Below are positions 8,780 to 17,854 of a stretch of DNA of 22,856 nt, one piece after another; position 1 is the first letter of the stretch, and the number at the start of each line of letters is the position of its first letter. Source of the DNA: a virus; the IMG/VR virus record IMGVR_UViG_3300031991_000033; one strand, written 5' to 3'. Below the pieces are notes generated by a model. That model saw only the letters and a list, made by a program, of their open reading frames with translations, made no database searches and had not been told where the DNA came from. The translations under genes were made by a program, and so were the position numbers.

Positions 8780-8860
8780 GGCTCTGTGGTGGAATAGCAG
8801 ACACGCTGGTCTTAGAAACCAGTGCCGTAAGGCGTGCAGGTTCGAGTCCTGTCAGAGCTA
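8780..8860 (+). tRNA. tRNA-Leu(TAG), long variable arm
   Basis: Cloverleaf; CTGGT-CT TAG AA-ACCAG; TTCGAGT T-loop. Confidence 0.92.
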
Positions 8861-8861
8861 C

Positions 8862-8962
8862 TTGGAAGTAAAAACCGGTGTACAACGGTAGGTGACATGT
8901 AGGAGATAATGCTTTCTCCGAGGGTTTCAATTCCGTGAGAGTGATTAGGCTCTTACTTCCAA
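8862..8962 (+). ncRNA. Structured RNA candidate between tRNAs
   Basis: Closing stem ttggaagtaa/ttacttccaa with several internal hairpins. Confidence 0.4.
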
Positions 8963-8967
8963 AACAT

Positions 8968-9049
8968 GGGTAGGTATGCAAGTGGTTAAAGCAGCCTGAC
9001 TGTAAATCAGGTGCCTTCGGCTTCGTGGGTTCGACTCCCACCCTGCCCA
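8968..9049 (+). tRNA. tRNA-Tyr(GTA)
   Basis: Cloverleaf; CCTGA-CT GTA AA-TCAGG; long variable arm. Confidence 0.92.
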
Positions 9050-9050
9050 C

Positions 9051-9153
9051 TGACAAGAGAAGCATCAGAGCCGTAAGGCGATGGTGGAGGTACTTGGTGC
9101 CGAGAGGCATCTTAAACAAAGATCATAGTCTGAGTCGTACTTCGATCTTGTCA
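9051..9153 (+). ncRNA. Structured RNA candidate with two GNRA hairpins
   Basis: tgacaaga/tcttgtca closing stem; gcc-GTAA-ggc; ggtgcc-GAGA-ggcatc. Confidence 0.5.
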
Positions 9154-9157
9154 TTAT

Positions 9158-9230
9158 GGAACTTTGGGATAGTTGGTACGTCCGGTGGGCTGAAAACTCG
9201 CAGGGGTCAGTTCGATTCTGACAGGTTCCA
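9158..9230 (+). tRNA. tRNA-Phe(GAA), divergent
   Basis: GGAACTT/AGGTTCC acceptor; GTGGG-CT GAA AA-CTCGC. Confidence 0.85.
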
Positions 9231-9281
9231 CTCATCATCAAACCTTAGAGAAAGCGGTTAGTCTTTACTCGAAAGGAGAGA

Positions 9282-9527
9282 ATGATGAAAGCGATTGTGT
9301 TAATGGGTTGTGATTACGACTACGAGTTTGTCGAAGCCGTGTTCCTTGTAGAGGATGATGTTCAGGAATCGGAATTGCGAAAGCAATGGCATGAAGAGTG
9401 CTCGATTCCATATAAGGGCAAAAACCAATACGGGGAGTGGACTTCGACCAAGTACGCCAAACACAGCAAGCAATTCCATGAATGGCTGGCTGAAAAGTTT
9501 GACAAAGTAGAAGTGATCTCGATCTAA
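9282..9527 (+). CDS. Hypothetical protein
   Basis: AAGGAG RBS; 81 aa; followed by a UUCG hairpin (9535-9550). Confidence 0.7.
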   Translation: MMKAIVLMGCDYDYEFVEAVFLVEDDVQESELRKQWHEECSIPYKGKNQYGEWTSTKYAKHSKQFHEWLAEKFDKVEVISI

Positions 9528-9555
9528 CGACCACGGGAGCTTCGGCTCCCAAAAT

Positions 9556-9640
9556 GGGGGCTGATCCACACGTCTGGCTGTAAACCAGATGGCATTGTTA
9601 TGTGTGGTGGTGCCGATGGGTTCGATTCCTACATCCCCCA
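9556..9640 (+). ncRNA. Aberrant D-armless tRNA-like RNA with GTA (Tyr) anticodon loop
   Basis: TCTGG-CT GTA AA-CCAGA arm; TTCGATT T-loop on a 4-bp stem; GGGGG/CCCCC acceptor; no D stem. Confidence 0.7.
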
Positions 9641-9656
9641 CTTACAAAGGATTGTT

Positions 9657-9869
9657 ATGTACCACGTTGAAAGAAATGCAAACAACAATCTCGGTTGGCA
9701 CAAGTTGATGTTCACCGAGTCACGAACCAGAGCTTATTGCGACGGTTATGTTGACGCATTCGATTCAATGTATCCAAGCGATCCAATGAGGATTGTAAAA
9801 GTTGAGAAAGATGGTACAACGAAAGTTGTACGAGAAACGAAAGGACGTGGTAAAGTCCACGTAAACTAA
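9657..9869 (+). CDS. Hypothetical protein
   Basis: AAGGA RBS before ATG 9657. Confidence 0.7.
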   Translation: MYHVERNANNNLGWHKLMFTESRTRAYCDGYVDAFDSMYPSDPMRIVKVEKDGTTKVVRETKGRGKVHVN

Positions 9870-9871
9870 AA

Positions 9872-9952
9872 CGCCTCGTGGTGGAATGGCAGACACGCCA
9901 GACTCAAAATCTGGTGCCGAAAGGCGTGTGGGTTCGAGTCCCACCGAGGCGA
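9872..9952 (+). tRNA. tRNA-Leu(CAA), long variable arm
   Basis: CCAGA-CT CAA AA-TCTGG; acceptor CGCCTCG/CGAGGCG. Confidence 0.92.
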
Positions 9953-9956
9953 CTGT

Positions 9957-10448
9957 ATGAAGTACCGACTCAAGATATTGAACATTGCATTGGTTCTAGT
10001 CTTAGTTTGTGCGTTCATATTGAAGATTGATTTCGGGCAACCGAAAAAAGTAACCGAACCTTCGGAAGATTCCGTTGTCCTTCAGTTACTCGAAGAGACA
10101 AACCAGTTCCGTAAGAAAAACCATCTTACAGAATTGACTCTCAACAAAAAGTTACTGCAAGCAGCCATGAAACACTCAGAGTGGATGGCGGCGAACGGTA
10201 AACTAGATCATACCGGCAAGAACAGAACAAGTCCTGCCGATAGGATCGATGCCGAAGGGTATAGTTGGTCAGCCTGTGCGGAGAATATCGCATGGAATTA
10301 CGAAACGCCTGAAACAGTAGTGCAAGGGTGGATTGGTTCCAGAGGGCATAGACAGAACATGCTCGGCAAATACACTGAAACCGGGTTTGGCTATGCAAAA
10401 TCGTCGTCTGGGGAATTGTATTGGACGGCGGTTTATGCAAAACCTTGA
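9957..10448 (+). CDS. CAP/SCP-domain protein with N-terminal signal or anchor
   Basis: NQFR, AAMKHSEWMA, LDH, AENIA, GWIGSRGHRQNML and YWTAVY. Confidence 0.9.
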   Translation: MKYRLKILNIALVLVLVCAFILKIDFGQPKKVTEPSEDSVVLQLLEETNQFRKKNHLTELTLNKKLLQAAMKHSEWMAANGKLDHTGKNRTSPADRIDAEGYSWSACAENIAWNYETPETVVQGWIGSRGHRQNMLGKYTETGFGYAKSSSGELYWTAVYAKP

Positions 10449-10458
10449 AGAGAACTGA

Positions 10459-10839
10459 ATGTTTGATCTTTCATATAGAAAAGTTTATAACAAAGGTCGT
10501 CGTGGTGAACGAGGACCAAAACAGAGGTACGCTGTTTTTCGTGCCGAACTGAACTTGAAGCGAGAAGAGGATTACGAATCGTGGTGCGAGAACTATTGTA
10601 ATCTAAAAGGTCTTAACCTTGAAGATTATAAGATCGAACACGATAAACTCCCGTGGACAATGACATGGGAATACATTAGAATCCGCAACAGAGTTTGGCC
10701 TTATAGTTTTCCACCTTACGTCATGCGTAGGTATAACGAAGAAGAGTTGGGAGCTTTGAGACGAAACATTGAACTCGCCGAAAGGATCAGGGATGAACGA
10801 AGCAGCCGTATTGACGAACGAATGGATCAAATCGTGTGA
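10459..10839 (+). CDS. Hypothetical protein
   Basis: Co-directional ORF that tiles with its neighbours. Confidence 0.65.
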   Translation: MFDLSYRKVYNKGRRGERGPKQRYAVFRAELNLKREEDYESWCENYCNLKGLNLEDYKIEHDKLPWTMTWEYIRIRNRVWPYSFPPYVMRRYNEEELGALRRNIELAERIRDERSSRIDERMDQIV

Positions 10840-11119
10840 GTATCAGAACGGACCAAATCCTGATGGCACTTACAGTTTATGGTTGTGGAACGGAGACAAA
10901 GACCTGAAGGTTGGTGATTGGTATGGTGGAGCAAAAGTTGTTCGTATCATTCATCAATTCCAAGCTTTAGGAGAAGTACAAGTTTTGGATCGAGGTTACA
11001 AGGGGTACGTTACCTTTAACCGAGAGCCGGGGCTTATGTTGAAAGAGAATGAGCCAGACTTTGTAGAATGGCTTGAGAAGAATGCCCATGTGGTGAAATT
11101 GGCAGACACGCCAGCTTGA
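10793..11119 (+). CDS. Hypothetical protein; 3' end overlaps tRNA-Leu(GAG)
   Basis: AAGGA before ATG 10793; the stop lies in the anticodon loop. Confidence 0.6.
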   Translation: MNEAAVLTNEWIKSCEYQNGPNPDGTYSLWLWNGDKDLKVGDWYGGAKVVRIIHQFQALGEVQVLDRGYKGYVTFNREPGLMLKENEPDFVEWLEKNAHVVKLADTPA

Positions 11120-11167
11120 GGGGCTGGTGCCAGCAATGGCGTGGAGGTTCAAGTCCTCTCGTGGGCA
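11084..11167 (+). tRNA. tRNA-Leu(GAG), long variable arm
   Basis: CCAGC-TT GAG GG-GCTGG. Confidence 0.92.
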
Positions 11168-11171
11168 CTAT

Positions 11172-11254
11172 GGAAGCGATCCGGCTGGATGAGGAACCTA
11201 CCTCGAAAGTAGGCGGGTGTAAAAGCCTTGGGGGTTCAAGTCCCTCCGCTTCCG
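11172..11254 (+). tRNA. tRNA-Ser(CGA)
   Basis: CCTAC-CT CGA AA-GTAGG; long variable arm; G73. Confidence 0.88.
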
Positions 11255-11257
11255 CTT

Positions 11258-11341
11258 GGAGGATAAGCGACTGGTAAGCAGGCTCTTTGCTAAAGAGTTG
11301 GTCTGAAACATGGCTTGCGGGTTCGAATCCCGTGTCCTCCG
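11258..11341 (+). tRNA. tRNA-Ser(GCT)
   Basis: GCTCT-TT GCT AA-AGAGT; G73. Confidence 0.88.
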
Positions 11342-11349
11342 CTTGATTT

Positions 11350-11433
11350 GGAAGGTAAGCGACTGGTAAGCAGGCTGCTTGGAAAGCAGTTGCCCTGAAA
11401 TACGGGTTGCGGGTTCGAATCCCGTGCCTTCCG
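11350..11433 (+). tRNA. tRNA-Ser(GGA)
   Basis: GCTGC-TT GGA AA-GCAGT; G73. Confidence 0.88.
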
Positions 11434-11437
11434 CTTG

Positions 11438-11758
11438 ATGAAGAAATACAATTTTGGGAACTTTTACCTAGGAACATTTGCTGATTTCAAAACTTGCACG
11501 AGACCAAGAGAACCACCAGATTTTTGGTCATATAGTGGATCAACCTATTGGGATTTAGGCGATAGGGTGATCAGGTGGAGTGATCATTGGGGATCAAACA
11601 TAAGCACTTGTGCTTGGTATCTTGATGGTTGTAAACTCAGTCTCGATTACTGTCTTGCAGGCGAATGTTTGTATGAAGAGTTTGAACTGGTCGAAAAAGA
11701 GAAAGACTGGTTATGGAAAGACTATTGGGGTTGCGACCATTCCGGTATGGGAACTTAA
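11438..11758 (+). CDS. Hypothetical Trp/Tyr-rich protein
   Basis: ORF fills the gap between RNAs; contains RWSDHWG. Confidence 0.7.
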   Translation: MKKYNFGNFYLGTFADFKTCTRPREPPDFWSYSGSTYWDLGDRVIRWSDHWGSNISTCAWYLDGCKLSLDYCLAGECLYEEFELVEKEKDWLWKDYWGCDHSGMGT

Positions 11759-11771
11759 TCGGTAATCAATC

Positions 11772-11849
11772 CGAGTCGGATGGCAGGAAAGGCACACATC
11801 ATGTCCTGAACGGAGATGTTGTGTGGGGGTTCGAGTCCCCTCGACTCCA
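11772..11849 (+). ncRNA. Aberrant tRNA-like RNA (acceptor and T arm, no D stem, extended arm with CTGAACG loop)
   Basis: GAGTCG/CGACTC; GGGGG-TTCGAGT-CCCCT; cacacatc/gatgttgtg stem. Confidence 0.65.
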
Positions 11850-11857
11850 CTAAATTT

Positions 11858-11944
11858 GGAAGGTAGGCAACTATCGGTTCGTTGCGTCTGTCCGCTAAAC
11901 AGATGACCCTTCGGGGTCTGCGGGTTCAACTCCCGTGCCTTCCG
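11858..11944 (+). tRNA. tRNA-Ser(GCT), atypical (C33, 5-bp D stem)
   Basis: TCTGT-CC GCT AA-ACAGA; GACCC-TTCG-GGGTC variable arm. Confidence 0.82.
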
Positions 11945-11987
11945 CTTCTCACGGTCTTTGGGATATCTATGTTCCAAAGGGGTGAGA

Positions 11988-12032
11988 CACCGCAAACCGG
12001 GTCAGGTCAGAAATGAAGCAGCCCTAGCGGTG
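11988..12032 (+). ncRNA. ffs: Minimal SRP (4.5S) RNA, helix 8/domain IV
   Basis: GGTCAGGTCA-GAAA-TGAAGCAGCC matches the E. coli motif GGUCAGGUCC-GGAA-GGAAGCAGCC with a compensatory pair; closed by caccgc/gcggtg. Confidence 0.8.
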
Positions 12033-12035
12033 AAT

Positions 12036-12108
12036 GGACAGTGAGCTAGTGTGGTCATAGCGTCGGACTGAAAATCCGAAGAAGTCGGTTCGATCCCGGC
12101 ACTGTCCA
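12036..12108 (+). tRNA. tRNA-Phe(GAA)
   Basis: TCGGA-CT GAA AA-TCCGA; GGACAGT/ACTGTCC acceptor. Confidence 0.9.
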
Positions 12109-12130
12109 CTACAACGTCAAGGAGAAAGAC

Positions 12131-12586
12131 ATGTTGCAAGCAATGAAGGCACAGATGGTTTTGGCAATGAAAGCCAAGAACGTCACCGAAAGAGACATTT
12201 TACGACTTGTGATTGGCGAGGTACAAAGTGCCGAAGCTAAACAAAACAAGTCGTTTACAGACGAACAAATTGAATCTGTAATTCGCAAGCAAATCAAAAG
12301 CAATGACGAAGCATTGACTTTCGTGCAAGCTGGCGATGAAAGACACACAAAGTTGCTGGATGAGAACGTGATTCTCAACAAGTTGCTTCCAGCGACTTTG
12401 AGTCAAGAAGAAATTGAAGCATTCTTCTTGAACTCAGACGGACCAGAATTCGAACAAATTCGTGATGCGAAGAATGATGGTCAAGCAACGGGTATCGCAA
12501 TGAAGGCTTTGAAAGCCGCTGACCAAAAGGTTCTCGGCGACGATGTAAAAGCAATTATTGCAAAGATTCGAAGCGAGATCGCCTAA
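12131..12586 (+). CDS. GatB/YqeY-domain protein
   Basis: AMKAK...LRLVIGEVQ...DEQIESVIRKQIK...LLPATLSQEEI. Confidence 0.85.
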   Translation: MLQAMKAQMVLAMKAKNVTERDILRLVIGEVQSAEAKQNKSFTDEQIESVIRKQIKSNDEALTFVQAGDERHTKLLDENVILNKLLPATLSQEEIEAFFLNSDGPEFEQIRDAKNDGQATGIAMKALKAADQKVLGDDVKAIIAKIRSEIA

Positions 12587-12635
12587 TGAACTTTTACGAA
12601 TTTGTCATTACACCAAGTTAAAAACCATTGAATAA

Positions 12636-12704
12636 GGTGCGGTAGCTCAGTTGGTAGAGCACTGGACTGAAAATCCGGGTGTCGGCGGTTCGAGTCCGCC
12701 CCGT
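12636..12704 (+). tRNA. tRNA-Phe(GAA), 3' end displaced by inversion
   Basis: Canonical D, anticodon and T arms. The missing ACCA is on the minus strand at 13120-13123. Confidence 0.85.
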
Positions 12705-12772
12705 CGATGGGACTCGAACCCATAGCATCAGATATTCTGAGTATCTGTGGTCTACCAATTGCCTACGACGCC
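12702..12772 (-). tRNA. Short-variable-loop tRNA-Leu(CAG), 3' end displaced by inversion
   Basis: GGCGTCGTAGGCAATTGGTAGACCA-CAGATA-CT CAG AA-TATCTG-ATGCT-T arm. The missing last acceptor bases and discriminator (CCA) are at 13127-13129. Confidence 0.8.
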
Positions 12773-13051
12773 ATTCATCTTCAGTAAGTCGTGAATGTTA
12801 CCAAAACGAGGACGATGGTTACAGTCTTTGTAAACCAAAATGTACTCGCCCGATTCCAACTCACGACGACCGCTTAGCCAATAAGCTGTGAATCTATGAT
12901 GCCCATCTTCCACTTGTACCGTTCCATCCTCGAATTCAGCGAGGGTGATTGGCGGCAATGGTTGAGACGCACCGATAGCTTCAAGCATACCGGGAATCTG
13001 CGAAGACCTTTTCAGGCTTCTTTGCGTGATGTGTATTGCTTCGATATTCAT
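12752..13051 (-). CDS. ParB/sulfiredoxin-like domain protein
   Basis: LPPITL...VEDGHHRFTAY motif; start uncertain. Confidence 0.75.
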   Translation of the reverse strand: MNIEAIHITQRSLKRSSQIPGMLEAIGASQPLPPITLAEFEDGTVQVEDGHHRFTAYWLSGRRELESGEYILVYKDCNHRPRFGNIHDLLKMNGVVGNW

Positions 13052-13131
13052 GATCCAGAACGAATTGTTCTGGCGGTGGAATACCGAATGTCACGCAAAT
13101 CATCATGTCAGTCTCCTAGTGGTACGCCACT

Positions 13132-13353
13132 ATGAGATTGAAAAAACAGAACTGGTTCTTTTGTGAACTTTGCGACACAATGTCCTACCAATTTGAATGC
13201 TGTGGAAACACAGCTTGCAACGGTGGGGGTTGTGATAAATGCAAAAAACTCTGGAAACAGGTTTGGCGTCTCATTGAAAATGGAAGGGCACCGAAGAAGA
13301 GCGAAGTTCGATTCATGCCCAAACCAGACTTTGGAAGCAATCCGGCTGGATGA
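13132..13353 (+). CDS. Small Cys-rich protein
   Basis: CELC, CCGNTAC and CDKC; overlaps the tRNA-Ser(TGA) 5' end. Confidence 0.65.
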   Translation: MRLKKQNWFFCELCDTMSYQFECCGNTACNGGGCDKCKKLWKQVWRLIENGRAPKKSEVRFMPKPDFGSNPAG

Positions 13354-13415
13354 GGACGCTACCTTGAAAGTAGTCGGGTGTAAAAGCCTTGGGGGTTCGA
13401 GTCCCTCTGCTTCCG
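13333..13415 (+). tRNA. tRNA-Ser(TGA)
   Basis: GCTAC-CT TGA AA-GTAGT; paralog of 11172-11254. Confidence 0.88.
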
Positions 13416-13429
13416 CTTAGGAATAGATC

Positions 13430-14074
13430 ATGAAAATCACAGCACTATCCGACCTGCACGGCTATCTGCCACCAATCGAAAACCCAACTGACTTGGTTTT
13501 GATTGCCGGTGATATCTGTGCTCACGGAAAACCCAGATACCAACTCAATTGGCTACGAGATCATTTCAAGCCTTGGCTTGAGAAGATTGATGCACCAGTG
13601 GTTGGTGTTGCCGGAAACCACGACTGGCCATTTTTTGGACAAGAGTATCCTTCCTTGAAGGAAGAAATCCAAAAGTTGGATTTGCTGTGGACTTACTTGG
13701 AAGACAGCGGAACCGAGATCAATGGGACCAAGATTTGGGGAACTCCTTGGCAACGAGAGTTCTACGATTGGGCTTTCAATCTCAAGGCACACGAACTTCC
13801 GGCAAAGTGGGCGTTGATCCCTGATGACACTGACATTTTGGTTTGTCATGGACCACCGTTCGGATTTGGCGACTTTGTAACTCGTGACAACGAGAACGTT
13901 GGATGTCCAGCGTTGCTCAGAAGGATCGAAGACATCAAGCCAAAACTGGTTGTTTTTGGTCACATTCATTGTGGTCACGGACACTGGAAGTATGACGGAG
14001 TTCAACTAGCAAACGTAACAGTGGTGAATGAGCAGTACCAACTGGTCTATCCGCCGTTCGAATACGAAATCTAG
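13430..14074 (+). CDS. Calcineurin-like metallophosphoesterase
   Basis: SDLHG, AGD, GNHD, HGPP and FGHIH. Confidence 0.9.
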   Translation: MKITALSDLHGYLPPIENPTDLVLIAGDICAHGKPRYQLNWLRDHFKPWLEKIDAPVVGVAGNHDWPFFGQEYPSLKEEIQKLDLLWTYLEDSGTEINGTKIWGTPWQREFYDWAFNLKAHELPAKWALIPDDTDILVCHGPPFGFGDFVTRDNENVGCPALLRRIEDIKPKLVVFGHIHCGHGHWKYDGVQLANVTVVNEQYQLVYPPFEYEI

Positions 14075-14082
14075 GAGATTCA

Positions 14083-14850
14083 ATGCGAAAAGACATGAAG
14101 AAAGTAATCATCTCCCGCCCTCGTGCGGGTGGTATTGACCGCTGTCTTCGCAAGAAGATCAACGTTCAAGACTTGGATGAAAACAACGACATTGACGACG
14201 GGTATCCCACTCGCATCAGTGTCAAGAAAGACGCTGTAGGACCGAACGGTGACCGCAAGAGCCAAACCGACTTGCTCGGACCTCTGCAACGTTACCTCCG
14301 CAAACAGGTCGGGCGTCCTTGGAATGATGTGTGGTCGGAAATCTGTGAACACAGCAAAGACTTCATGGGCGACCATCTCAAAACCCACATCGAATGGGAA
14401 GTCGAGGTCAACTGTCGCTTCGATGAAGACGAACTCGTAGGACCGAACGGCTATCCGGTTGGACGCTGGCGTCGGAATGGACAACTGTACGTTCATCCCG
14501 AAACCGGCATCCTCCTCAAAGCCGAAGCTCGTGACAAGTACCGACACAAGAAGCCTGAATACAAGATCGTCGAAATGGACGGTCAAGAATACTACCAGCA
14601 TGAAGGCATCTGGTATCGTGTGAAGACCGAACCCTACGAACCCAAGGATGCTTGGGAACGTCATTACGGATCGTTCAGCAGCGATGTCTTTAGTAACGGT
14701 GGTGGCAGCTTCAACGGTCTCGGATACTATCGTAGCAAGTCTTTGTCGGAAGCTTATGGGAAGTCCATTCGCTGTGTCTGGAAACAGCAAGCCAACAGCA
14801 AAGAATGCAAACGACTCAACGGTGTGATCGAAAGGAAGGAAGCCGCTTGA
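14083..14850 (+). CDS. Hypothetical basic protein (255 aa)
   Basis: AGGAG RBS; long ORF. Confidence 0.8.
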   Translation: MRKDMKKVIISRPRAGGIDRCLRKKINVQDLDENNDIDDGYPTRISVKKDAVGPNGDRKSQTDLLGPLQRYLRKQVGRPWNDVWSEICEHSKDFMGDHLKTHIEWEVEVNCRFDEDELVGPNGYPVGRWRRNGQLYVHPETGILLKAEARDKYRHKKPEYKIVEMDGQEYYQHEGIWYRVKTEPYEPKDAWERHYGSFSSDVFSNGGGSFNGLGYYRSKSLSEAYGKSIRCVWKQQANSKECKRLNGVIERKEAA

Positions 14851-15143
14851 TGTTTTGGCGTCGTAGGCAACTTGGTAGACCACAGAAGCTCAAACCTTCT
14901 GATGCTATGGGTTCGAATCCCATCGACGCTACTGAACAAAACGAGAGAGCGAAAGCTATTCTCCAAGAATGGATCGATCAACAAGGTCATGAACGTTGTT
15001 GGTATTATCCAGACCTTTTCAATCGTTTGATTAAGGTATATGGCATTGAAACAACCAAAGAACCAAACTTACCACCACGATGCGAGTTTGAGGAAGGTTG
15101 TAGAAGATATCAGGAAGAAGAGTATGAACGAATTGATCGCTGA
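14850..15143 (+). CDS. Hypothetical protein; start lies before or within the tRNA
   Basis: The nearest in-frame ATGs are 14850 and 14907. The C-terminal part (QGHERCWYYPD) looks protein-like. Confidence 0.55.
   Translation: MFWRRRQLGRPQKLKPSDAMGSNPIDATEQNERAKAILQEWIDQQGHERCWYYPDLFNRLIKVYGIETTKEPNLPPRCEFEEGCRRYQEEEYERIDR
14857..14931 (+). tRNA. Short-variable-loop tRNA-Leu(CAA)
   Basis: CAGAAG-CT CAA AC-CTTCTG-ATGCT; A73. Confidence 0.82.
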
Positions 15144-15360
15144 GGCACGTAAACATTTAGCCGCCCTCACTCCCGGTGACTGGACGGTAGATGAATGTGG
15201 GTCGGAAGACTGTTGGTGTCGCTGCATCGGCAGCACACACCCAGAACATGCAGAACGAGGCGTTGTTCCTTCGGGATGCATGGACAAACACGACGCCGAA
15301 GCAATCGTTTGGATCAGAAACAATTTGGGTCGGATTCTTGATGCTTTGGAAGATGCCTGA
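15124..15360 (+). CDS. Hypothetical protein (TPGDW motif)
   Basis: MNELIAEARKHLAALTPGDW...; resembles common small phage ORFs. Confidence 0.7.
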   Translation: MNELIAEARKHLAALTPGDWTVDECGSEDCWCRCIGSTHPEHAERGVVPSGCMDKHDAEAIVWIRNNLGRILDALEDA

Positions 15361-15366
15361 TAACAT

Positions 15367-15443
15367 GGCACGGTAGGCAATTATTGGTAGACCACAGACG
15401 TTGAGATCGTCTGATGCTCCGGGTTCGAGTCCCGGTCGTGCCA
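15367..15443 (+). tRNA. Short-variable-loop tRNA-Leu(GAG)
   Basis: CAGACG-TT GAG AT-CGTCTG-ATGCT; ends 16 nt before the LeuRS start. Confidence 0.82.
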
Positions 15444-15459
15444 CTTTTGGAGAAAGATC

Positions 15460-16755
15460 ATGAAGGGTTTTGACGCACCACCTTTGGACCCAAACATTGT
15501 AGTAATGTTCCCCTACCCTTCCGGTAAGGGATTGCACATGGGTCACTATTACAACTACGCCATCATCGACAGCTATTGTCGGTATTGGCGTCACCAAGGT
15601 AACAAAGTCTTCCAGCCATTTGGCTATGATGCGTTCGGCTTGCCTGCCGAGAACTACGCACGTCAAATTGGCGGTGATCCTCGTGAGATCACCTATGAAA
15701 ACATCGCCAACTTCCGTCGCCAGATGGAACAGATGAATACACAATTTGAAGAGAAGTTGGTGACTTCTGATCCGTCCTACTACAAGTGGACTCAATGGTT
15801 GTTCTTGAAGTTGAAAGAACATGATTTGGCTTACAAAGCCAATGGCTTGGTCAATTGGTGTCCATCCTGCGTCACTGTGTTGGCGAATGAGCAAGTGACA
15901 CCCGAAGAGCGTTGTGACCGTTGCGGCTCCGCTATTGACCAGCAAATGATGAATCAATGGTACTTCCGTATTACAAAATACCGAGACCGTTTGATCCAAA
16001 ATTTGGATTTCATCGACTATCCCGAAGGAACCATCAAACGTCAGCGTCAATGGTTGGAGAACTTGCATGATTGGTGTGTTAGTCGTCAACGCAAATGGGG
16101 TTGCCCAATCCCGATTGACGGCGAGGAAGACACTCTCGATACCTTCGTTGACAGCAGTTTCTACTACTTGAGGTACTTGACTGACTCAGAAGATGAGTTC
16201 TTGCCAGCCACAGCTTATCGTCCAGTGGATTTGTACGTCGGCGGTGCAGAACATGCTACGATGCATTTGATCTATGCACGATTCATTCACATGTTCTTGT
16301 ACGATATTGGCATTGTGCCACAAGAAGAACCGTTCGATAAGGTCATTCATCAAGGAATGATCACTAAAGACGGTTCCAAGATGGCGAAATCCAAAGGTAA
16401 TGTAGTCAATCCCGACGACTACAACTCAGACGAGTTGAGATTGGGTTTGATGTTCATTGGTCCTTATTTTGAAGGCGGTGATTGGAACGAACAGTCCATT
16501 CGTGGAGTTCAGAAATTCTTGCGGAAGTTCAGCAAGTGGTTGGAGTCTGCTTCGGGAACTGGCTTGGATTTGGATATGACAGAATTGAAGAATAAGATCG
16601 ACTCCAATGTTCGATCATTCAAATTCAATTTGGTTGTAAGCAACTTCATGAAGTTCTTGAATGAGAACAAAGGTAAAACCATTTCGTTCAAGACTCGATA
16701 CGAGTTGATGAACTTGTTTGGGTGTTTTGCACCCGGATATTTGGAGAAAATCTGA
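15460..16755 (+). CDS. leuS: Minimal leucyl-tRNA synthetase (431 aa)
   Basis: MFPYPSG-LHMGH, GYDAFGLPAEN, WCPSC..CDRC, DWCVSRQRKWG, DTFVDSS, YVGGAEHA and KMAKSKGN. Confidence 0.93.
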   Translation: MKGFDAPPLDPNIVVMFPYPSGKGLHMGHYYNYAIIDSYCRYWRHQGNKVFQPFGYDAFGLPAENYARQIGGDPREITYENIANFRRQMEQMNTQFEEKLVTSDPSYYKWTQWLFLKLKEHDLAYKANGLVNWCPSCVTVLANEQVTPEERCDRCGSAIDQQMMNQWYFRITKYRDRLIQNLDFIDYPEGTIKRQRQWLENLHDWCVSRQRKWGCPIPIDGEEDTLDTFVDSSFYYLRYLTDSEDEFLPATAYRPVDLYVGGAEHATMHLIYARFIHMFLYDIGIVPQEEPFDKVIHQGMITKDGSKMAKSKGNVVNPDDYNSDELRLGLMFIGPYFEGGDWNEQSIRGVQKFLRKFSKWLESASGTGLDLDMTELKNKIDSNVRSFKFNLVVSNFMKFLNENKGKTISFKTRYELMNLFGCFAPGYLEKI

Positions 16756-17153
16756 TGTCTCAGTGGATGTGTGAACTTTGTTTCCCAACCGGTGTTGAGT
16801 TAGGCGTCGTACTGCCGGGTTATTCCTTGATGCTTCTCAATGAGCAGTATCACCTTCTGGGTGGTCAGGGACACAATGGTCACATTTTGTTGACCTTCAA
16901 TCACCGTCCATTTCCAGACCCCGATCCAGAATCCGAAAGCACGGATCAGGAAGTGAACGCTTTGAGTGATCTGTGGCTGGAACACGTCTTGGAGCCAATC
17001 AGGAACTTAAAGCTTTCGCCTCAAGATGGTCACGATATCGTCGAGTCGGCAAAGGAATTCGGTTGGCATTACGAAAATTGCAACTTCGATTACTGGTTGG
17101 CTGACCGCTGTGGCGTGGTTGCTGCCGAATGGGAGAAGTCAAATGAAGGATGA
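16755..17153 (+). CDS. Hypothetical protein
   Basis: TGATG coupling to leuS. Confidence 0.7.
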   Translation: MSQWMCELCFPTGVELGVVLPGYSLMLLNEQYHLLGGQGHNGHILLTFNHRPFPDPDPESESTDQEVNALSDLWLEHVLEPIRNLKLSPQDGHDIVESAKEFGWHYENCNFDYWLADRCGVVAAEWEKSNEG

Positions 17154-17661
17154 TTTGTACTACCAAATGGTTGCCAAGTTCTACGAGGGCAAATTTGCCA
17201 AACGTAGCGGCGTGCCTTACATGAACCACATTGATGAAGGTATGGTCTTGTGCGATCATTTGGGGTATGATCTATATGTGAAACGAGCTTTTTGTCTTCA
17301 TCCATTGTTCCAAGCTGATGAAGCATTGGCTGGGATTAAACAATGGGAGCGAGTCGCAGACACGATTTTTGTTGACGAATTCGATGCTTATGTTATGATG
17401 CTCGTGATGGAGTACCGCAACAAGGCGAATGGGTATTTGTCGAACAAAGACAAAAAGGTTGAAGACATCAGTCTGAGTCCTTTGGAACAAGTCAATCAGA
17501 TGCTTGTCGTGGACAAGGTTCAGAACAGGAAGGACTTCGAGAAATATCACTTCGGCAGTCATCCTCGTTCTTTCCAGTTGAACACATATTTTCACAACTG
17601 GTTACAAAGATTGGGAATCTCCGAGGATAAATATCAAGAGTTGAAAGCTTTAATAGATTGA
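17143..17661 (+). CDS. Hypothetical protein, N-terminus resembling RelA/SpoT-type HD hydrolases
   Basis: KRSGVPYMNHI and VVDKVQNR, but HP in place of HD. Confidence 0.6.
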   Translation: MKDDLYYQMVAKFYEGKFAKRSGVPYMNHIDEGMVLCDHLGYDLYVKRAFCLHPLFQADEALAGIKQWERVADTIFVDEFDAYVMMLVMEYRNKANGYLSNKDKKVEDISLSPLEQVNQMLVVDKVQNRKDFEKYHFGSHPRSFQLNTYFHNWLQRLGISEDKYQELKALID

Positions 17662-17664
17662 CAT

Positions 17665-17738
17665 GGCACCGTAGGCAACCGGTAGACCACTTGGACTTAA
17701 AATCCGAGATGCTGAGGGTTTGATCCCCTCCGGTGCTA
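17665..17738 (+). tRNA. Short-variable-loop tRNA-Leu(TAA)
   Basis: CTTGGA-CT TAA AA-TCCGAG-ATGCT; atypical T-loop TTTGATC. Confidence 0.78.
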
Positions 17739-17817
17739 CTCACAACAATAAGCTCAGACAAAAGGCTATCTTGTTGCAGACTGAAAGCCTCTGAGAAGCA
17801 ACTGTTGTGACCCCAAC

Positions 17818-17854
17818 GAAAAAGGCGTCCTGATTTGATCAGGACGCCTTTTTC
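17818..17854. terminator. Bidirectional intrinsic terminator closing the tRNA island
   Basis: aaaaaggcgtcctgat-ttg-atcaggacgccttttt between convergent units. Confidence 0.9.

Follow-up and report, generated by a model that had tools for sequence, protein, structure and literature searches.

Short-arm tRNA-Leu genes beside a minimal, single-codon leucyl-tRNA synthetase gene in a viral tRNA array: probable members of a mobile type I lineage

The window analyzed here is the whole stretch of 22,856 nucleotides that forms the final 22.8 kb of the viral record IMGVR_UViG_3300031991_000033 (157,792 bp, 45% G+C). It holds leuS, a gene for a minimal leucyl-tRNA synthetase (mini-LeuRS), surrounded by tRNA-Leu genes of the short-arm (type I) kind, in which the variable region is 4–5 nt long and forms no extra helix. 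Attention was drawn to these genes by an earlier reading of the letters alone (the sequence-only reading), in which four such tRNAs were proposed as possible private substrates of the synthetase. Completeness of the record was estimated at ~31% using CheckV. Relatives of its genes were found on phage contigs of 450–735 kb, so the record is probably a fragment of a huge phage. The tRNA genes were called using ARAGORN and were scored with R1, the covariance model of the short-arm family. The genes of the module, by window position, are the following.

12698–12772, minus strand: short-arm tRNA-Leu(CAG), broken (ARAGORN)
14857–14932, plus strand: short-arm tRNA-Leu(CAA), decoding TTG (ARAGORN; R1 90.9 bits; Rfam tRNA model 44.2 bits)
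15367–15444, plus strand: short-arm tRNA-Leu(GAG), with a longer D loop (ARAGORN; R1 85.2 bits; Rfam 37.4 bits)
15460–16755, plus strand: leuS, encoding a 431-aa bacterial-type LeuRS core
17665–17739, plus strand: short-arm tRNA-Leu(TAA) (ARAGORN; R1 87.7 bits)

All four tRNA genes have T8-A9, the string GGCAA..GGTAGACCA, six consecutive anticodon-stem pairs, a 5-nt ATGCT variable loop, a 7-bp acceptor stem and a canonical T arm. The D arm has two Watson-Crick pairs only (GG/CC) and a Leu-like loop ending in GGTAGA. The shared core, six-pair stem and ATGCT loop named in the sequence-only reading were thus borne out in all four by ARAGORN and by sequence comparison. R1 scored the four at 82–91 bits (E 1e-22 to 1e-24) and ordinary tRNAs at no more than ~55 bits. 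The clustering around leuS was likewise as described: the ATG at 15460 begins 16 nt after the end of the GAG gene, with a GGAG ribosome-binding site in between, and three short-arm genes lie within 2.3 kb of leuS.

An intact acceptor stem and discriminator were found in the CAA, GAG and TAA genes and not in the CAG gene. The CAG copy has G.G at acceptor pairs 1-72 and 2-71 and G at position 73; it is the sole aligned member of the family in which those two pairs are broken, and its Rfam alignment covers model positions 3–68 only. It is fused 3'-to-3' with a truncated tRNA-Phe, as follows.

12636–12701, plus strand: truncated tRNA-Phe(GAA), cut at about position 68 (Rfam 53 bits; the alignment, 12640–12703, covers model positions 5–66 only)
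12702–12772, minus strand: body of tRNA-Leu(CAG), approximately positions 1–70, without the acceptor 3' end
12702–13126: inverted segment of 425 bp, with both breakpoints within tRNA acceptor 3' strands
13127–13130, plus strand: CCAC, the 3' remainder of tRNA-Leu(CAG)

In silico reversal of 12702–13126 restored an intact tRNA-Phe(GAA) and an intact plus-strand tRNA-Leu(CAG) with A73 (ARAGORN). The tRNA-Leu(CAG) gene has therefore been split by a 425-bp inversion, and as assembled the window holds three intact short-arm genes and one broken one. The earlier count of four stands for CAA, GAG and TAA and falls for CAG, which lies split on the minus strand without A73.

The leuS product is a bacterial-type LeuRS reduced to its core. 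It matched TIGR00396 with an E value of 9.5e-115 (against 1e-43 for valS) and a score of 384.6 bits, which is below the curated cut-off of 548.4. The HMGH and KMAKS motifs and four zinc cysteines (C134, C137, C152, C155) are conserved in 31 homologues of 401–441 aa. It falls short of the full LeuRS domain set, missing the CP1 editing domain, ~50 aa of CP2, the leucine-specific domain and the C-terminal domain that binds the tRNA elbow. In terms of T. thermophilus LeuRS, residues 226–417 (CP1 editing), 437–486, 579–636 (leucine-specific domain) and those after ~790 (C-terminal domain) have no counterpart, and a KDGS linker replaces the leucine-specific domain. The closest solved relative is the CP1-less LeuRS of Mycoplasma mobile (E 2.5e-91), to which an AF2 model (predicted local distance difference test score, pLDDT, 86.9) was matched by Foldseek with a TMq of 0.89. 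The mini-LeuRS family comprises at least 120 clusters at ≥64% identity, on contigs of up to 634 kb. On the contig of one relative (L294), ~8 kb from the mini-LeuRS gene, positions 12915–13817 encode a 300-aa product matching tRNA-synt_1c, the catalytic domain of Glu/Gln-tRNA synthetases, which may be another cut-down synthetase.

Leucine content of the leuS product is ordinary (7.9%), and 33 of the 34 Leu codons are TTG. In the record as a whole (181 open reading frames, ORFs), TTG accounts for a median of 29% of Leu codons, and no ORF other than leuS exceeds 58% (binomial p = 1.4e-14). For its other codon families leuS shows mixed use. The collapse onto one or few codons recurs independently in relatives: TTG makes up 100% of the Leu codons in four (L303, L304, L307, L312) and 92–96% in six others, CTG makes up 95% in L308 and 89% in L299, only UUR codons are used in L316 and L324, and only CTT and CTC, except for two CTA, in L315. 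A 541-aa homologue (L351) has one Leu codon. Local backgrounds for the same codon in the relatives are 4–30%, and Leu content is often lowered too. Where the flanking tRNA-Leu genes are known (L303, L312, L308, L315), one has the matching anticodon; the matching neighbor is usually of the long-arm kind (caa/82 in L303, caa/83 in L305 at 40 nt upstream, cag/86 in L308, gag/85 in L315). Horizontal gene transfer was ruled out as the cause of the TTG bias, since the other codon families of leuS are mixed and the relatives collapse onto different codons. The collapse may reflect selection that ties the synthesis of LeuRS to a single isoacceptor, which would amount to a self-priming design. Within the window three genes read TTG: two of the short-arm kind (CAA and TAA) and one long-arm CAA gene. 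The long-arm genes, and the element that closes the unit running from leuS to tRNA-Leu(TAA), are listed below.

8780–8861, plus strand: long-arm (type II) tRNA-Leu(TAG) (ARAGORN)
9872–9953, plus strand: long-arm tRNA-Leu(CAA) (ARAGORN), redundant in decoding with the short-arm CAA gene
11084–11168, plus strand: long-arm tRNA-Leu(GAG) (ARAGORN), redundant in decoding with the short-arm GAG gene
17818–17854, plus strand: terminator-like hairpin of 17 bp followed by a T-rich tail

Normal long-arm tRNA-Leu genes with CAA and GAG anticodons are therefore present in the array (at 9872 and 11084), as the sequence-only reading had said.

Further members of the short-arm family were sought by scanning IMG/VR for the D-arm motif followed by ARAGORN, and were found on 11 further viral contigs; altogether, members are known from 13 viral contigs and from 6 bacterial genomes. 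The family is defined by R1, with which members score 78–93 bits and other tRNAs ~55 bits or less. Its invariant core is TA-GGCAA..GG(T)AGACCA with the variable loop ATGCT and A73. In an alignment of 22 sequences (A1) the invariant columns are T8, A9, GGCAA, G18, G19, G22-A26 (GACCA), ATG and T of the variable loop, and the T loop, and the stems vary freely. In this alignment 98.2% of cells are paired, and both partners have changed in 17 of 20 pairs (7/7 acceptor, 6/6 anticodon-stem and 4/5 T-stem pairs); the two D-stem pairs are invariant and hence uninformative. The covariation score was 0.94, against 0.12–0.15 for controls with slid partners. RNAalifold paired G18G19 with C24C25 rather than with G10G11, and because all of these columns are invariant the sequences are compatible with either D-stem register.

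The anticodons are those of Leu in all 22 aligned sequences and in the members added later, and all six were seen (CAA, TAA, CAG, GAG, TAG, AAG). A73 is present in at least 90% of members, the Leu identity elements T8, A14, G18 and G19 are invariant, and the D loop reads ..GG(T)AGAC as in the long-arm Leu genes of the same phage. The synthetase does not read the anticodon, yet the family holds Leu anticodons only, and this restriction appears best explained by leucine identity. Exactly six stacked anticodon-stem pairs were found in 43 of the 79 unique short-arm tRNA-Leu sequences collected, the sixth being Watson-Crick in 34; six pairs were reached by only 17% of other tRNAs. Because 49 of 68 long-arm tRNA-Leu sequences have a G.U pair immediately on top of the 5-bp stem, the extra pair is probably the 26:44 pair of class II tRNA-Leu hardened to Watson-Crick.

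The family was found repeatedly where the mini-LeuRS is missing. A 543-kb phage genome (G006, CheckV 100%) carries at least four R1 members (CAA, CAG, AAG, TAG); when it was searched with the mini-LeuRS only MetRS and IleRS matched, and no LeuRS was found. Nor was a LeuRS found in three other member-carrying phage records, G007 (171 kb, 89%), G015 (43 kb, 81%) and G008 (97 kb, 74%). In such LeuRS-less phage contigs the members sit in general tRNA arrays, and in one array (L026) R1 members are the only tRNA-Leu genes within a 14.6-kb stretch. Phage arrays that hold R1 members also carry tRNA-Tyr(GTA) genes of 70–73 nt (L026, 11513–11585; L072, 3027–3096), which lack the long arm normal for bacterial tRNA-Tyr.

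In bacteria, members are chromosomal both in Agromyces cerinus, inside an IMG/VR 'provirus', and in 5 of 151 sampled Planctomycetota genomes. The D-arm pattern scan of bacterial genomes yielded mostly chance matches, and 2 of the 80 loci examined held true members by covariance model. Among 151 Actinomycetes genomes no member was found beyond the starting Agromyces, an undercount since 32 candidates were scored per genome. The bacterial members lie in arrays of 15–27 tRNA genes in which short-arm and long-arm Leu genes are mixed. Five member-carrying bacterial genomes were searched with the enzyme, and each had one full-length LeuRS only (open frames of 807–1119 aa); judged from this gene content, charging by the host enzyme is likely in the array-carrying bacteria. 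In two Planctomycetota species (G237 and G262; arrays L288 and L289) the same gene order was seen over 15 array tRNAs, including one R1-type tRNA-Leu(TAG), a 79-nt tRNA-Leu(TAA) and a long-arm CAG gene. The idea that an array tRNA is the host's only tRNA-Leu(TAG), and hence of necessity a substrate of the host LeuRS, was ruled out by the full dispersed long-arm set of G237. A third Planctomycetota genome (G265; L291, 1401–1743) has four tandem short-arm tRNA-Leu genes (TAG, CAA, TAA, AAG) of another subfamily, marked by TAGCCCAATTGGCAGAGGC and an ACAGTG-like loop; this subfamily also flanks many mini-LeuRS genes (L302, L316, L351).

The neighborhood of the enzyme was surveyed in 54 IMG/VR loci with enzyme relatives, using 10-kb flanks. 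Among them 23 had tRNAs, 15 had tRNA-Leu and 10 had short-arm tRNA-Leu. Of ~195 unique flanking tRNAs 54 were Leu, and the next isotype numbered 15, so the association of mini-LeuRS with tRNA-Leu suggested from the window alone is real. Unrelated viral loci (68) held 2 tRNA-Leu, too few to give a background rate of the short-arm type in phages. The unique Leu flankers comprised 37 of the long-arm and 17 of the short-arm kind, and at five loci only long-arm tRNA-Leu was present, as in L305, where three lie upstream at distances of up to 700 nt. Linkage of the enzyme is therefore to tRNA-Leu genes generally and not to the short-arm kind, and an exclusive tie of the synthetase to short-arm tRNAs is not supported. 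In the closest relative (L292, 87% identity) an R1-type tRNA-Leu(TAA) lies 3 nt past the leuS stop and no tRNA lies upstream; relatives at 72–73% identity have no nearby tRNA. In the other records with mini-LeuRS relatives no R1 member was found (top score 52 bits). Four of them, G001, G004, LR745206 and LR756501, hold short-arm tRNA-Leu of other subfamilies (2, 1, 3 and 2 genes, respectively), all beside long-arm tRNA-Leu.

The remainder of the array was also inspected. ARAGORN called 13 tRNA genes in the whole record, all inside the window and of the isotypes Leu, Ser, Tyr and Phe only; the set (8780–17739) thus consists of the three long-arm families plus Phe. In every array tRNA gene the discriminator is followed by C-T and not by CCA. 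Additional tRNA-like elements, not called by ARAGORN, lie at 9555–9640, 11172–11253, 11727–11852 and 13333–13414. Two of these are Ser-like and 91% identical, with anticodon loops CGA and TGA and odd D arms, and score 29–32 bits with the Rfam tRNA-Sec model. The copy at 13333–13414 gave the sole megablast hit, to Streptomyces phage pSt2308. A match to the Rfam bacterial small signal recognition particle RNA (11966–12058; 41.4 bits, gathering score 40) sits within the tRNA array and overlaps the start of a tRNA-Phe at 12036.

The tRNA family with its structure and spread, the make-up of the enzyme, the linkage of the genes and the collapse in codon use were observed, and who charges these tRNAs and to what end is inferred. 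On balance the evidence favors, with a modest degree of confidence, the reading that the four genes belong, as Leu isoacceptors, to a mobile type I tRNA-Leu lineage borne mainly by phages, are charged by ordinary bacterial-type LeuRS and are embedded here in a leuS module. The lineage would travel in phage and bacterial tRNA arrays. Its members would be charged with leucine by the host LeuRS, and probably also by the 431-aa phage core, and would provide a second set of Leu decoders, redundant with the long-arm one at CAA and GAG. With the leuS mRNA recoded to TTG and read by the CAA and TAA tRNAs of the module itself, the phage could set Leu charging going, or raise it, from a very small amount of charged tRNA-Leu. 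A likely purpose would be to make the phage independent of the host's Leu-tRNA when that pool is scarce or attacked.

Charging by ordinary LeuRS has a precedent in Streptomyces coelicolor, where one full-length LeuRS charges tRNA-Leu of both types, I as well as II (PMC6614811). Several points weigh against this interpretation. E. coli LeuRS cannot charge the type I tRNA-Leu of S. coelicolor, so that charging by a given host is not guaranteed (PMC6614811). For the S. coelicolor enzyme (ScoLeuRS) the tRNA elbow is dispensable with type I and not with type II tRNA-Leu (PMC6614811, Table 2), a property that would suit an enzyme without the elbow-binding C-terminal domain. All five large mini-LeuRS records with tRNA arrays hold some short-arm tRNA-Leu. 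The bacterial arrays are accessory, G237 having a complete dispersed long-arm Leu set as well, and could be silent cargo; the completeness values of the phages are CheckV estimates.

A stronger form of the proposal is put forward tentatively: the leuS-tRNA block may be a self-starting leucine-charging module, with the armless tRNA-Leu acting as nuclease-insensitive or elbow-independent substrates of its loop. The mRNA of a minimal LeuRS, cut to one Leu codon, would be read by tRNA-Leu genes from within the block itself. It would then take no more than a trace of one isoacceptor in charged form for LeuRS to be made, and the enzyme would recharge that isoacceptor and the rest in an autocatalytic loop. 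Such a loop would let huge phages restore Leu decoding when the host Leu-tRNA pool is depleted, cleaved or uncharged.

The presence of short-arm genes in five out of five array-bearing records keeps a preferential relationship between the enzyme and the short-arm tRNA-Leu possible. Under such an arrangement, which is somewhat doubtful, the mini-LeuRS would strongly favor short-arm over long-arm tRNA-Leu, and the host LeuRS would use both. It would fit the loss of the C-terminal, leucine-specific and CP1 domains and the unequal importance of the elbow to ScoLeuRS (PMC6614811), as well as the same-family TAA tRNA that abuts leuS in the 87% relative and the three short-arm genes near leuS in the window. 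It is harder to reconcile with the five loci that have long-arm tRNA-Leu only within 10 kb, with the usually long-arm nature of the anticodon-matching neighbor, and with the frequency of short-arm tRNA-Leu in enzyme-free arrays.

Loss of the long arm could protect the Leu-decoding tRNAs from some host nuclease or modifier by which type II tRNAs are recognized. This would explain the make-up of the array, with all three type II families (Leu, Ser, Tyr) and otherwise only Phe, and an armless form for Leu only, the arm not being needed by bacterial LeuRS; the occurrence of both arm types for CAA and GAG also agrees with it, and tRNA arrays have been discussed as possible anti-defense cargo (PMC12803027). 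However, no nuclease or defense gene was identified, other tRNAs may lie elsewhere given its ~31% completeness, and Phe does not fit. Evasion of this kind, though compatible with charging by ordinary LeuRS and not exclusive of it, is considered unlikely.

A closed orthogonal pair, in which the mini-LeuRS alone charges these tRNAs and nothing else, is the strong form of what the sequence-only reading suggested and is now very improbable. Tight clustering in the window and in L292 and the rejection of type I tRNA-Leu by E. coli LeuRS (PMC6614811) speak for it. Against it, the tRNA family occurs independently of the mini-LeuRS: it is present in the complete LeuRS-less 543-kb phage, in the other phages (G007, G008, G015), and in the arrays of bacteria whose only LeuRS is full-length. 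Other mini-LeuRS phages, moreover, carry unrelated short-arm subfamilies that score no more than 52 bits with R1. Insertion of some other amino acid at Leu codons, as had also been suggested, or a role as non-translational decoys is hardly credible for these tRNAs: a non-canonical D stem of only two Watson-Crick pairs and an invariant core might hint at it, but the family is confined to the Leu anticodons, showing all six, and retains A73, G18G19, a canonical T loop and a D loop of the Leu type, and a change in the meaning of every Leu codon would affect the whole proteome.

Of these findings, the leuS-tRNA-Leu module with its single-codon synthetase gene is of the greatest interest. A literature search, which was not exhaustive, found no description of the R1 family, the mini-LeuRS clade or the codon collapse. 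Short-arm tRNA-Leu has been treated as a rarity of mitochondria and Streptomyces; it emerges here as a conserved mobile family, regular in huge-phage and bacterial arrays, and bears on recognition of tRNA by LeuRS and on the annotation of tRNA genes. The single-codon leuS suggests a phage-borne unit, compact and self-priming, that serves one amino acid. Such a unit, if real, would represent a natural form of translational autonomy and a possible counter to tRNA-targeting defenses. Compact LeuRS-tRNA parts could also be drawn from it, although the data speak against their being orthogonal as they stand.

Six stacked anticodon-arm pairs also occur in tRNA-Pyl, tRNA-Sec and mammalian mitochondrial tRNA-Ser(UCN). 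Unlike these, the phage family has Leu anticodons and a Leu-like remainder, and its extra pair is probably 26:44. The statement that bacterial tRNA-Leu is class II, on which the sequence-only reading relied, does not hold as a strict rule, since type I cases have been published (PMC6614811, PMC6582537). One of these is the type I tRNA-Leu(CAA) of S. coelicolor, which likewise has a 5-nt variable loop, the minimum for type I tRNA-Leu, coexists with long-arm tRNA-Leu and receives leucine from a bacterial-type LeuRS (PMC6614811). It differs in being chromosomal and of a different subfamily, its loop being ACAGC and not ATGCT. The LeuRS that charges it is full-length, and the leucine-specific domain, missing from the phage enzyme, is important there.

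A tRNA-Leu(TAG) with a short variable loop is mentioned in passing in a mycobacterial tRNA gene cluster (PMC6582537). Mycobacterial clusters and array units resemble the Planctomycetota case in that an accessory mobile array with armless tRNA-Leu stands beside normal chromosomal copies (PMC6582537, PMC4758250, PMC12803027); the likeness is one of description, the mycobacterial accounts giving no family definition, six-pair stem or synthetase link. Animal mitochondrial tRNA-Leu is also of type I, with A73 and a bacterial-type LeuRS (summarized in PMC6614811), but works in a separate compartment with a full-length enzyme and is unrelated in sequence. On the side of the enzyme, the LeuRS of M. 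mobile (PDB 3ZIU; PMC3643597) is, like the phage core, naturally without CP1, and a short linker of the KDG type stands where the leucine-specific domain would be. It differs from the phage enzyme in having retained the C-terminal domain that binds tRNA, along with ~40 further residues (637 aa), and in being the only LeuRS of its cell.

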